The notes under the pieces are model-generated. The model saw nothing but the letters and a program-made list of their open reading frames with translations. It was not told the DNA's origin and made no database searches. The position numbers were made by a program, and so were the translations under genes. This document shows, one piece after another, positions 7,779 to 55,959 of a stretch of 64,000 nt of DNA (position 1 is the stretch's first letter; each line of letters starts with the position of its first letter). Source of the stretch: Eledone cirrhosa (Eukaryota); contig OZ024742.1 of assembly GCA_964016885.1 (NCBI GenBank), positions 173,290,001 to 173,354,000 of the forward strand, given 5' to 3'.

Positions 7779-7831
7779 TAATAATAAAATAACAGAAGGC
7801 TGGACTTGTGTAAATCCTTGAAAGGTTTATG

Positions 7832-7889
7832 ATACTATGATCATTTCAATGACCGGCTTCCGTATGAATCCGGTGATATCATCAGGTAT
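7832..7889 (-). ncRNA. Type I hammerhead ribozyme
   Basis: Minus strand: atac CTGATGA tatc-accgg..ccggt-catt GAAA tgatca TA gtat; palindromic stem III ATGATCAT. Confidence 0.7.
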
Positions 7890-10145
7890 TCGAAATATAA
7901 TAGATGAATGTAACAGATAAAATCCATGTGGCTGAAAATCATAGACCCGAGGACGACCGACCATCTACATCTTCCAATTTAGCCGGTCTAACTTAAGTGC
8001 TGGCCATTGGACTTACTTAAGGCTATCTGGTGAGGGGGCTAAAGCTTATTGTGTGCTTCTAACCTCCCGGTCAAAGAGAAGAAAATCAGAAAGAAAGGGG
8101 AAGAAAAGTCAGCATTAATGCCATGCTACAGTCAGGCCAGGAATTGTCGCGAAACAAGTTATTCTAAAGGACCCGTAGCTTAACAGAGGTATTTATTATA
8201 ACAGAGGTATATATAGTGGGGGTCTACATGGTATAATGTGTGAACAGAAGATTGGAACGTTAAATGTTTGTTTAGATGTATAGGATGATATTAAAAACAA
8301 AAGATTAACATTATAAAATTAAAACATTATGAAATTGAAAATTAAACAGTTTAAACAATTTTTTAGGGTTTTGGGTTGCGAGCTTTAGTTAAAGAAAGAG
8401 TCTTTTATGAAGAAACTTTAATTGTATTATAGAGATCCTCGATAAGTTACCCGAGTGGGATGTCGAGTAAAGATTATGTCCTTGTTTAGCAGTCAAACAG
8501 CATGCGGCGACTGCAGACACCGGCCAGCCCATCATAACCACGTGTCACCCATTCCGAGTGATATCGCCTAGCGAAAGATATGGAAATCAATTTTTCCAAG
8601 CACTCTAGGAATATATTCCAGGCTTCAGGAGTTCTAGTGGGAAGTCAGCCATCGTTATACCAAACGAGTACTATTAATTTACAGAGGAGGGGGGATTATT
8701 TAAGTAGAGGGAGGCATGATACAGCTAATAGTTATGATTAGGCCTAGAATTTAAAGGTACTATATGGCGGTCATAAAAAAAAAACGGCTGCGCGGCGGGT
8801 CCCGGGGCGAATCAAACCGCTCCGTGTAATTTCATTTACCGAAAGAAGGGGAAATTTATTTTTCCAAGCACTCAAGGTAGGCCTATGCACCAGGAGGCCG
8901 GCCTCGCAGCCACGAAAACCAACACAACAGTCGGATCATCGCGTGTAATTAATTGTAAAACTCGATGAAAAGCGCAATTAGACTATATCTAGGTCCCCGG
9001 ATAGTCCGGGTAATACGTATTGTTGTTCTCAGGGGGAGATATTCTAGTGGTGTGTGCTAATGGGTACAAGCGAGTAAACATCCGAATAAAATGAATAAAA
9101 AATACATGGATAGATAAAAGTAGAATAGGTAGATACAAAACACATTAATAAAGTAAAAAGGTAGAAATATATAAATAAACAAATAAAAATAACTAGAGTG
9201 GTGGTGGAGTAAAACGGAGAAATCAAAACACAGGATAAATACAATATAGTTCAAGTTTTATTGACCTCCATATAGTACCGTTAAATGTTAGGTCTAATCA
9301 TAACTATTAGCTTTATCATTCCTCCCTCTACTTAAACAAATGCCCCTCCTGTGTAAATTAATAGTACTTGTTTGGTATAACGATGGCCTAACGACGATGG
9401 CTGACTTCCCACTAGCACACCTGAAGCCTGGAATACATTCCTCGAGTGCCTGGAAAAATAGATTTCCATATCTTTCGCTAGGCGATCTCATTCGGAATGG
9501 ATGACACGTGGTTAGGATGGGTTGGCCGGAGTCGGCAGTCGCCCCATGCTGTTTGACTGCTAAACAAGGACATAATCATTACTCTACATCCCACTTGGAT
9601 AACTTATCGAGGATCTCTATAATACAATTAAAGTTTCTTCATAAAAGACTCTTTCTTTAACTAAAGCTCGCAACCCAAAATATTTAATAACATTTTAAAA
9701 TTGTTTAATTTTCAATTTTCTAATTTTTTTAATTTTATAATGTTAATCTTTGAATTTTTTAACTTCATCATATACATCTAAACAAAAATTTAACGTTCCA
9801 ATCGTCTGTTCACACATTATACCATGTAGACCCCACTATATTTACCTCTGTTAAGGTACGGGTCCTTTAGAATAACTTATTTCGCGGCAATTCCTGGCCT
9901 GACTGCAACATGACATTAATGCTGACTTTTCCTCCTCTTTCCTTTTGTTTTTCTTCTCATTGACCGGGAGGTTAGAAGCACACTATAAGCTTTAGCCCCC
10001 TCACCAGATAGCCTTAAGTAAGCCGAATGGCCAGCACTTGAGGGCGAACGGCTAAAGTGGAAAATGGAAGATGGTCGGTCGTCCTCGGGTCTATGATTTT
10101 CAACCCCATGGATTTTATCTGTTACATTCATTTATTATATTTCGA

Positions 10146-10203
10146 ATACCTGATGATATCACCGGATTCATACGGAATCCGATCATTGAAATGATCATAG
10201 TAT
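10146..10203 (+). ncRNA. Type I hammerhead ribozyme
   Basis: atac CTGATGA ..cggattc atacg gaatccg.. GAAA tgatca TA gtat. Confidence 0.7.
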
Positions 10204-52548: not shown

Positions 52549-52744
52549 TGTCTGCTCTGCTTATACGCATAGAGCTTAACTAGCTACCGTCGCATATTTG
52601 GTAGGTCAGGCGTGATCATCGCGATTTACGTACGACCTACCATACATCTTGCTTATATATATATATATATATATATATATATATATATAATATTCAGGCC
52701 ATGTCTAAATTAATAGCACAACCTGGCGAACTCTTTCAAAATAG

Positions 52745-52990
52745 GATTAGGGCTCCATAGCCCACTTAAATAGAGAGTTACTGTTTAAGGAGGCATATCC
52801 GTGTGTAGGGAGTTTATCGGGGATTGCTTGAACTTTATGGAGTCTGTATATGTTTTTAATTGTTTTGGTGTAATGTTAAAGAGAGCGGGGACAATAGAGA
52901 TGAAATAATTGTGCCGTATTCTTATTATGAGACGTGAGTGAGATGTTTGATGAGGGAGGGGGGGGGATAACACGGTGCACTAGCCTTGTA
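52745..52990 (-). mobile_element. CR1/L2-like LINE 3' fragment
   Basis: RHNYFISIVPALFNITPKQLK..IKFKQ resembles the extreme C-terminus of CR1-group ORF2. Confidence 0.55.
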
Positions 52991-55959
52991 TGTAATCTCT
53001 CTCTCTCTATATATATATATATAATGTACACACAAGGCTAGGGCCCCGTGCTATGCCCCACATCAGATGGAGAAAGAAAAAGAAGAGTTTTCTGAGTGTG
53101 TGTGAAAAAACTCTTTTACGCTTGAACATGTTAGAGCACAGTGGTTGTGTCTTGACATATTCCCGGAGTCTGACACGGCCATTTATTTTACTTTATTTAT
53201 AGTTACTGGTATTTCCCCAACTGAGTAAATTTGCTCAAGGAAACAAATATCTACCAGTGTACGGAGCCCACAACCTTACGATAATGAGTAGAATGCAGTA
53301 GACTCTGAATCACGTGCATTCACATATACACATGCTTACACACACAAATATATATATACGCATATGTACGTAAGGGTTATAACGAACATTAACAATAATT
53401 TTCGATTCGTTTATATATATATATATATTTATATATATATATATATATATATATATATATATATATATGCACATGTATATATATATATATATATATATAT
53501 ATATATATATATATATATATATATATATATATATATATATACGCATATATATGGGTATATATAACGAAGGAATTGAGGTAAGGAACCAGATGGAACATAA
53601 CACATAACATACTAGAGTAGTCAATACTTAGGGTAGTAGAGTGGGTAATAGGAAAAGGTATGACCTCGACGGCAGAGCTCAAGCCGTTTCGACGGCTATA
53701 TATATATATATATATATATATGTATATATACATACATACAGATATATATATATACACAGACTCATACACATATACATATATCTGCGTTTGTGTGTATGTC
53801 TATGTGTGGGAATATGTGTGTAGTGAGTGTATATATATATATATATATATATATATATATAATATATATATATATATATATATATATATATATATATATA
53901 TATATATATATATATATATATATATATATATATATATATATGTATATATATATATATATATATATATGTGTGTGTGTGTGTGTGTGTGTGTGTGTGTGTG
54001 TGTGTGTGTGTGTGTGTGTGTGTGTACGTATTTACATACATATATTCTGGCATTCAAATTAAGTTAGCCTCACATGGTGGTATGAAAATTAATGCAACCT
54101 TAGACCGAAACTGCAAATATCATGAAATTCAGTATTTTAATACAACGCAAAGAAGAATAAATTGTATCAACAATGACCCTTTTTTTATATATATATTTTT
54201 TTTTATTTCTATTCTTGTCTGTTTTAAATCTGAATAAACTATCGGTTCAAATGCGAGTTCTTTCTAACGTAGAAAAATATATTGACATCAATGTTAATCG
54301 TTCTTCTTATTTTTTTCTTCCACATATCATTATATAATACTCTACTCAGGTTTTTCCCACCAGGATTTAGAACATTCCGTATGAATTCCATTTTGAAAGT
54401 AAAACTTAATAAAACAAATAAGAACAGCTATATACGATTGGTTCTATTTCTTTTTCATAAAGTCCCGAGAAGGAAAATATCCTGTTGTGGTGTATAATAT
54501 TTGCTTGGTTGTAATTTATTATAGCTCTAAATATAATTGAATCGCACCGCAGGATCCGTTTTCACAATTATTCAGACGTATATGAAACAGAAATTGTAGA
54601 ACGTCGACCAACGATCTGTCTCTAACGAAACAATTCAACGATACTTGCCCGGTGGCATAAATTATTTCCACGCCACCTACATTATTGACTCAATAAAAAT
54701 AGGTTGCATATAAACTATGTTCTATCAACCCCACACCCCGCCACACACACACACGAAGTATGTGTAAATGTGATAGTGTTGAGTAGGAGAATATGAGGTA
54801 GACTAATCAGACTTCCTGGTGTTCCAATGGAATTTAACGACTCAACAAATAAGGTAATATATTAGGAAATGATTATCCAAATGCCCATATGCACTCAGGT
54901 GTATACGCATGATACGCACAAGTATTCGCTTGTACATAAAAACTCATATTTATGTAGATGAATGTATGTGTGTATATACGTTTGTATGTATGTAAGCTTG
55001 TAACCAAACACACAGACATACACACATATATATATATATATATATATATATATATATATATATGAGTGTGTGTGTGTGTGTGTTTACGTATATATATATA
55101 TATATATATATATATATATATATATATATATATATATATATGTATATATATAGGAAACAGTAGGACCCCGACAGCTGAGCTCAAGCCGTTTCGACGGCTA
55201 ATTCTGTATATATATATGTATATATATATATATATATATATATATATATATATATATATATATATATATATATATATATATATATATATATATAAGTATA
55301 TATATATATATATATAATCACTGACGTAGGACTATTTTTATCATATGTAACCCATGTGCAAACCACGCAGTATTCTTCTTTCTTCTTATACTTTATATAT
55401 ATATATATATATATATATATATATATATATATATATATATATGTGTGTGTGTGTGTGTGTATGTGTGCGTGTGTGTGTGTGTGTGTGTGTGTGTTTCTGA
55501 TGGTAGCTAAGTTGCTTAGATAGGTGGTATGCCGCTTGAGCACTCCATGCTTTTACAGAGTAGGATAGAATAGTAGACGAAAAATCAGTGATGCATCGGA
55601 ACTCAATTTTGTGTGTCTTACATTTGTTTCACCGGCGGAAACAGTCAGAGAATATGCTCCGAAATCATTAGACTTATCCGTCGAACCTGCGGGTCCAGTA
55701 TCAGACAGATCCATACAATGATCGCGTCTCCAGCTGTCCGTCGGGGAAACAATTGTAACACACAATAAATTGAGTTCAGATGCATCACTAATTTTTCGTT
55801 TTCTATTCTCCTTCTCTCTCTATATATATGTGTATATATATATATATATATATATATATATATATATATATATTTATATATATGTATGTATGTGTGCGTG
55901 TGTGTGTGTGGGTGTGTGTGTGTGTGTGTGTGCATGTATGAATGTGTATATATATATAT

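Follow-up and report, generated by a model that had tools for sequence, protein, structure and literature searches.

Paired internal ends in outward-facing hammerhead ribozyme foldbacks of Eledone cirrhosa suggest priming of two DNA ends on one RNA

We analyzed a stretch of 64,000 nucleotides from Eledone cirrhosa (the window; GenBank assembly GCA_964016885.1, contig OZ024742.1, positions 173,290,001 to 173,354,000) that contains ten foldbacks associated with hammerhead ribozyme (HHR) motifs, together with related copies from elsewhere in the genome. The ends, haplotypes and junctions of these structures suggest that they stem from Penelope-like elements (PLEs) and that both ends of a PLE-made cut probably prime the same RNA, at two internal sites that we call S1 and S2. 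What is new is the way in which ends and templates appear to be coupled, a refinement of the known picture. The outward polarity of the arms, with the minus-strand copy on the left and the plus-strand copy on the right, is real, but it is already published for PLEs (PMC3846280, PMC8557442) and is ordinary when taken alone.

The window lies on contig C3 of the 3.0-Gb genome and abounds in decayed retroelements and (TA)n tracts. Twelve blocks of 100 kb each (1.2 Mb, or 1.26 Mb together with the window) served as the outside sample. One of the twelve (L051-L060) is satellite over its entire length, with 48.5% GC and no HHR or PLE matches.

Ends, haplotypes and junctions of the 310-bp retrozyme

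The foldback at 35597-38434 belongs to a family of non-coding tandem units of 310 bp, each with one type I HHR motif, which occur as dispersed insertions without long terminal repeats (LTRs) and with a target site duplication (TSD) seen in the window copy. Its HHR has 4,033 exact copies genome-wide; the end motifs of the family number 506 for S1 and 995 plus 73 for the two forms of S2. S2 lies about 25-35 nt beyond S1, and the interval is a tail of the PLE type. With a high-copy, young and polymorphic retrozyme of this kind, ends, junctions and haplotypes can be read in many independent products.

Fifty regions were fetched from contig C1, ten of them picked by HHR and 40 by S1 end. They comprise 40 head-to-head double arrays and ten single-armed copies, and not a single tail-to-tail junction. 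With the window array added and one duplicate dropped (a locus beside an assembly gap), the analyzed set consists of 42 pairs. All 39 fully visible pairs (38 by script, one by inspection) have one S1 and one S2 end, and for each of the three cut-off loci an S2 end is found in the list of ends. The 153 ends listed on C1 tell the same story: S1 and S2 are paired outward in 26 cases, whereas opposite-strand pairs of like ends (S1+S1 or S2+S2) are absent; the two inward neighbours on this list both lie between adjacent foldbacks.

The lengths of the two arms are independent of each other. The longer arm carries S1 in 19 and S2 in 19 of 38 pairs, 22 of the 38 show a length difference above 600 nt, and the correlation between the lengths is weak (rho 0.37, p 0.02). 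None of the 84 5' stop points falls within 5 nt of the HHR cut. At the centres, the mean overlap of 30 direct joins is 1.97 nt, compared to 0.76 nt expected (p ~1e-4), and 12 of the 42 centres have 1-11 added bases. By end positions, two double arrays on C1 (G000) extend over about 15 kb (near 97.46-97.48 Mb) and about 9 kb (near 36.48-36.49 Mb).

The 42 loci represent 17 haplotypes, 13 of them seen once, and each haplotype is fixed in all units of both arms. For variants covered by at least two units, discordance between the arms of a locus is 0/42, compared to 65% across loci (permutation p<1e-4); when single-unit variants are counted as well, the values are 3/42 and 80%. Fixation of variants in every unit would require a bottleneck of one unit, which a circular template would supply.

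Polarity, tails and ribozyme motifs in other families

A strict structural scan for type I HHRs gave 45 matches in 1.26 Mb, compared to one in the reversed sequence, and a looser scan gave 75 matches at a score of at least 12, again compared to one. Four doubtful seeds were removed before polarity was counted. In the 1.2 Mb outside the window, opposite-strand copies of HHR families that are linked by inverted homology and lie less than 5 kb apart are outward in 44 cases and inward in three, where random inversion would predict about equal numbers (these are counts of pairs, not of independent events). For pairs of the same families more than 5 kb apart, the numbers are 36 outward and 37 inward. 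tRNA-like short interspersed elements (SINEs), used as a control, show an outward to inward ratio of 61:44 for pairs within 5 kb, and of 400:261 beyond it, the latter excess because of clusters. Outward arms house 125 of the 204 HHR-family copies. Pairs oriented by protein sequence (four outward, none inward within 5 kb) are too few to carry weight.

Inspection of the inward pairs shows that two stem from distinct insertions next to each other or from a cross pair at 78%, and that the remaining one lies inside an inverted flank duplication surrounding an outward core. One more inward pair, the fourth, belongs to an HHR family outside the seeds and lies inside a composite palindrome of 5.4 kb (L011:51-5407, at G000:C2:80.00 Mb). 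This palindrome includes several unrelated elements and microsatellites around a tail-less HHR mini-palindrome, and is probably a secondary inverted duplication seeded by the small foldback. At L112:6386-7087, an outward mini-palindrome is followed by an inverted copy of its left flank, which suggests template switching during repair.

Exactly one arm continues into a family-specific tail of 30-160 nt in 28 of 31 outside structures, and the other three were left unresolved by BLAST; an 82% pair without tail, three cross pairs, the composite palindrome and two structures with ill-defined ends were removed from this tally. In the family of the window foldback at 50934, 11 of 13 mini-palindromes have a single tail, and the centre differs in each. 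The variation of the centre at every locus and the asymmetric ends are not those of miniature inverted-repeat transposable elements or other DNA transposons with terminal inverted repeats, whose ends and centre would stay constant as the palindrome moves. Targets are (TA)n or AT-rich, in agreement with the preliminary description of the window, which had insertions mostly at (TA)n tracts. TSDs flank the foldbacks at 12315 (14 bp) and 35597 (about 19 bp); among the 50 structures tested for one, these two alone have a TSD that can be read clearly, as flanks mostly consist of (TA)n. Two PLE-family arms (L049:9430-9475 and L085:3367-3394) have a mirror arm of only 13-31 nt followed by unrelated sequence, reflecting either internal priming or later deletion.

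Head-to-head form, one-sided tail, (TA)n or AT-rich target and TSDs where visible all support an origin of the PLE type. The arms at 12315 give a weak GIY-YIG match in Pfam, and copies with an open reading frame (ORF) of a PLE are found for the families of 12315, 17420 and 42335, but for none of the other seven in 1.26 Mb. Mobilization of non-coding ribozyme RNAs, as proposed earlier, would apply to only part of the ten: non-coding HHR repeats do match the architecture of ORF-bearing PLEs, but at least three structures are 3' ends of coding PLEs. The labels Neptune-like and Hydra-like used below rest on motifs (for Neptune-like ones, those described in PMC8557442) and not on a tree of reverse transcriptases (RTs).

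The term ribozyme-bearing, originally applied to all ten foldbacks, has to be narrowed as well. A full type I HHR motif with canonical or U3-A8 core is present in both arms of five (7779, 12315, 35597, 42335 and 51075), whereas the other five do not combine CUGANGA, GAAA and UH (or the U3-A8 variant) and all three stems in each arm. At 11009, only the left arm has a complete motif, and at 50934 a U3-A8 HHR is reduced to its 3' half, the complete form being found in outside copies. The family of 17420 has a CAGA[A/T]GA core (U4A) throughout, its orientation being confirmed by a PLE ORF upstream of family copies. At 24481, GCAA replaces GAAA; relatives retain GAAA together with a compensatory stem II. 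The foldback at 55565 is limited to GAAA-palindrome-UA, and its orientation is therefore weak; the single polarity claimed for the ten holds wherever orientation can be assigned. The U4A core (17420-18110, 55958-56050 and the family), a U4C core in another sampled family and the GCAA of the 24481 subfamily may, judging by sequence, represent dead or variant ribozymes. A plus-strand HHR in the left arm at 24481 (C3 with A8, no stem I) was considered and rejected, since relatives and tail position give the opposite orientation. An Rfam search returned no HHR among the 150 best rows, but only miRNA matches that are driven by palindromes and below threshold.

Probable priming at two sites on one RNA, and the alternatives

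We consider it likely that the two ends of a PLE-made cut prime the same RNA at S1 and S2. A Penelope-like RT/GIY-YIG protein would cut a target that is (TA)n or AT-rich on both its strands, and each target 3' end would then prime on the same RNA, one at internal S1 and the other at S2. The two cDNAs would grow inward, each stopping independently, and their ends would be connected either by microhomology of 0-5 nt or by a few extra bases. On a linear RNA, both cDNAs would often halt near the same 5' point and leave a near-perfect palindrome; for the 310-bp repeat, the template would probably be a circle of monomeric RNA that is reverse transcribed over many rounds from each side. More tentatively, we suggest a stronger version, in which twin priming is coupled on a single RNA and the two borders of the tail, S1 and S2, are shared out between the two DNA ends. 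On the 310-nt ribozyme circle this would be double rolling-circle reverse transcription, and it would have yielded at least 1,000 mirror-image arrays of up to 15 kb in this genome. If true, a single rule would account for the spread of retrozymes as well as for the inverted repeat and the tail on one side.

The preliminary description had both ends of a break primed on RNA 3' ends and the two cDNAs joined centrally. Two-ended priming and central joining, with microhomology at the joins, are supported. Priming on RNA 3' ends is not supported: each structure has one end at each of two fixed positions inside the RNA, neither of them at the HHR cut, and a single template haplotype in both arms.

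The closest biochemical parallel is PAc, a Poseidon PLE protein and predicted dimer that nicks and extends both strands of an AT-rich target in vitro, has two internal start sites between which the tail lies, and does not need cleavage by the HHR (PMC11167929). In vitro, no difference in start site was observed between strands, and the available text does not deal with a coupling of the two ends, whereas the genomic data imply one exclusive site per end. The form of the foldbacks is that of endonuclease-positive (EN+) PLEs, with a head-to-head inverted 5'-truncated copy at the 5' end, an often one-sided tail, TSD, (TA)n bias, an HHR near the 3' end and, here putatively, cargo moved in trans (PMC3846280, PMC8557442). 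Head-to-head is the most frequent PLE arrangement according to PMC3846280, which proposes self-priming, and PMC8557442 names the origin of tandem and inverted structures and of the one-sided tail as an open question. Where these accounts, in the parts available, describe the form without counting it and invoke self-priming, we find a single tail as a near-strict rule, independent of arm length and of about 30-160 nt. Like the minimal HHRs of metazoan PLEs, the motifs have a short or palindromic helix III and U3-A8, and occur as opposite-strand pairs, there 100-700 bp apart, for which the available text of PMC4209133 does not give the polarity.

The 310-bp family also resembles animal non-LTR retrozymes (PMC7229834; bioRxiv 10.64898/2026.07.22.740005) in its non-coding tandem units with one type I HHR each, the U.U at the base of stem II, the palindromic loop 3, the low GC content and the long TSD. 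It differs from them in consisting mostly of mirror-image double arrays with S1/S2 ends of the PLE type. A circular template and mobilization by PLEs have been proposed for retrozymes in both papers, in PMC7229834 as a hypothesis; a word search of their main texts gave no mention of retrozyme arrays in inverted or head-to-head form. More generally, we found no mirror-image retrozyme arrays, S1/S2 exclusivity or shared arm haplotypes in the openly searchable main texts covered, and the available parts of PMC8490949 and PMC12910113 likewise hold nothing on these points. The supplementary model figures of PMC7229834 and PMC11167929, outside this scope, may bear on the claim.

Twin priming as such has a precedent. 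In LINE-1 elements, the inverted piece stems from a different, more 5' part of the RNA, whereas both arms here copy the same 3' region from fixed sites. Shared features are the second priming at the target, cDNAs joined by microhomology and the outward polarity (PMC10760644).

The strongest alternative, though in our view an unlikely one, is snap-back: a cDNA, or an antisense RNA as proposed in PMC3846280, would fold back and become a hairpin by being copied, and a staggered endonuclease cut would then remove the tail of one arm. Many structures are indeed near-perfect palindromes, identical arm haplotypes are predicted, and PMC8557442 attributes the tail to endonuclease-mediated resolution. 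The position of the tail is harder to accommodate. Among 18 asymmetric non-tandem structures, the long arm, which would bear the loop, has the tail in eight and the short arm in ten, so that the cut would need random polarity. Moreover, in eight of the ten short-arm cases the tail sequence is missing from the long arm, and therefore neither arm is a plain copy of the other, which excludes plain snap-back copying; neither arm is contained in the other in eight of the 18 clearly asymmetric structures. The array arms with their large length differences (22/38), and joins with 0-5 nt overlap or added bases, also argue against a hairpin. The data on the 310-bp family favour one template primed twice over self-priming, and its ends tie retrozymes to PLE chemistry.

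Somewhat less likely still is priming of two separate RNAs, one per end, as the preliminary description had it; the RNAs would come from one donor locus, or an asymmetric dimer would impose S1 on one side and S2 on the other. A single expressed donor per germ cell would yield matching haplotypes, and the arms at 17420 resemble different subfamilies. At L016:5040-8640, two different PLE families meet head-to-head at a mini-palindrome of 28 bp with microhomology of 4 nt, and the whole has a single tail; this heterologous join fits two RNAs, but it also fits a later deletion at the microhomology. Against two RNAs speak the lack of any discordant locus among 42 despite 17 haplotypes, in a non-coding RNA that is incapable of cis preference, and arms that neither start nor end at the HHR cut.

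That both polarities arise, and that later tail-to-tail loss or gene conversion between arms makes the pattern, is very improbable. Some arms are truncated past a short palindrome at the centre, and flanks can be duplicated in inverted form over large stretches, both indicating that palindromes are unstable here. However, the youngest family, with almost no variation within loci, has no inward junction in 50 regions, SINE pairs occur in both polarities (61:44), and neither S1/S2 pairing nor a shared TSD can be created by loss. Least credible is an assembly artefact from fold-back long reads: the arms of 35597-38434 are 100% identical, none of the contigs listed bridges its centre (which proves nothing, as contigs are short and the family is very high-copy) and one unplaced contig has symmetric ends, but TSDs, asymmetric S1/S2 ends, arms up to 29% diverged and a different centre at each of the 42 loci support the earlier view that the structures are genuine.

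Several observations weigh against priming of both DNA ends on one RNA. The shared haplotype would also arise if a single donor locus supplied both transcripts or if one arm were a copy of its partner, and for tandem arrays, arm length alone fits snap-back resolved at an S site too. Most of the 50 regions were selected by their S1 end, and a fifth of them are single-armed. One unplaced contig has two S2 ends, and the end positions include one possible opposite-strand S1/S1 pair, 17.6 kb apart. No PLE with the same tail as the 310-bp family was found. As to whether an arm is closer to its partner or to copies elsewhere, the partner ranks first among the sampled copies in only 25 of 45 structures (23 of 30 with arms of at least 100 nt). 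At 17420-18110, each arm is nearer to outside copies, the two group with different ones, and both have the tail, at a divergence of about 6% plus a 22-nt gap. The L016 join described above counts here as well.

The window foldbacks and their surroundings

Inverted repeats are present at all ten positions first described, with arm identities of 71-99%, and most foldbacks extend further than originally delimited, by way of the one-sided tail (Table 1).

Table 1. Foldbacks and an additional PLE copy in the window (positions within the 64,000-nucleotide stretch; strand in brackets)
Position	Element	Arms	HHR and coding parts	Tail or end type	TSD and centre
7779..10399	foldback; no ORF of at least 100 aa	~1 kb each: 7779-8778 (-), 9256-10257 (+)	HHR 7832-7889 (-), ~10146-10203 (+)	10258-10399, right arm; matches one outside copy	spacer 477 bp
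11009..11755	foldback, retrozyme-like, unit ~520 bp	long arm 11009-11581 (-), 1.1 units; short arm 11582-11755 (+)	HHR 11061-11140, long arm	long arm, S1-type end; short arm terminates at tail end	
12303..13969	foldback, 5'-truncated Neptune-like PLE (motif label)	12315-13105 (-), 13106-13895 (+)	GIY-YIG coding part in arms; HHR cores 12510 (-), 13700 (+)	13896-13955, right arm only	14-bp TSD, 12303-12316 / 13956-13969
17410..18110	foldback, 3' end of PLE family		HHR-like motif with U4A core		
24481..26055	foldback		degenerate U3-A8 HHR (GCAA)	26018-26055, right arm	(CA)n-rich centre
35580..38452	foldback, head-to-head double array of 310-bp HHR repeat (retrozyme)	35597-36914 (-), 4.25 units; 36910-38434 (+), 4.9 units		S2 end (-), S1 end (+)	TSD ~19 bp with one mismatch, at 35580 and 38434; centre microhomology 5 nt
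42254..42682	foldback, terminal repeat of Hydra-like PLE family (motif label)		HHR cores 42428 (-), 42581 (+)	42254-42334, left arm	
50856..51054	mini-foldback		3' half of U3-A8 HHR in each arm	50856-50933, left arm	
51075..52654	foldback	~300 bp each	U3-A8 HHR 51124-51170 (-), plus copy ~52455-52500	probable, 52549-52654; outside copy absent from sample	AT-rich spacer
55500..55817	foldback, old	71% identity	partial HHR-like motif only	probable, 55500-55556, left arm	
55958..58290	extra PLE copy, same polarity, not in the preliminary description	inverted arm 55958-56524 (-); plus terminal repeat part 58060-58290	decayed ORF from 56569 (+)		

The window contains further repeats. A perfect palindrome of 100 bp with a (TA)n centre and without HHR lies at 18192-18291. 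A decayed transposon-like element with terminal inverted repeats, presumably mariner-like, occupies 34722-35583, and its right end belongs to the TSD of the retrozyme. tRNA-like SINEs, with 179 copies in the sample, are found at 13955-14140, 18356-18565, 21086-21968 and 27190-27372, and the tail of one SINE copy is the insertion site of the PLE at 12315. Decayed RT frames of the LINE type and three further PLE copies (GIY-YIG/RT fragments) lie at 39276-40787, 59324-61976, 15050-17140, 41410-42033 and 42913-45118.

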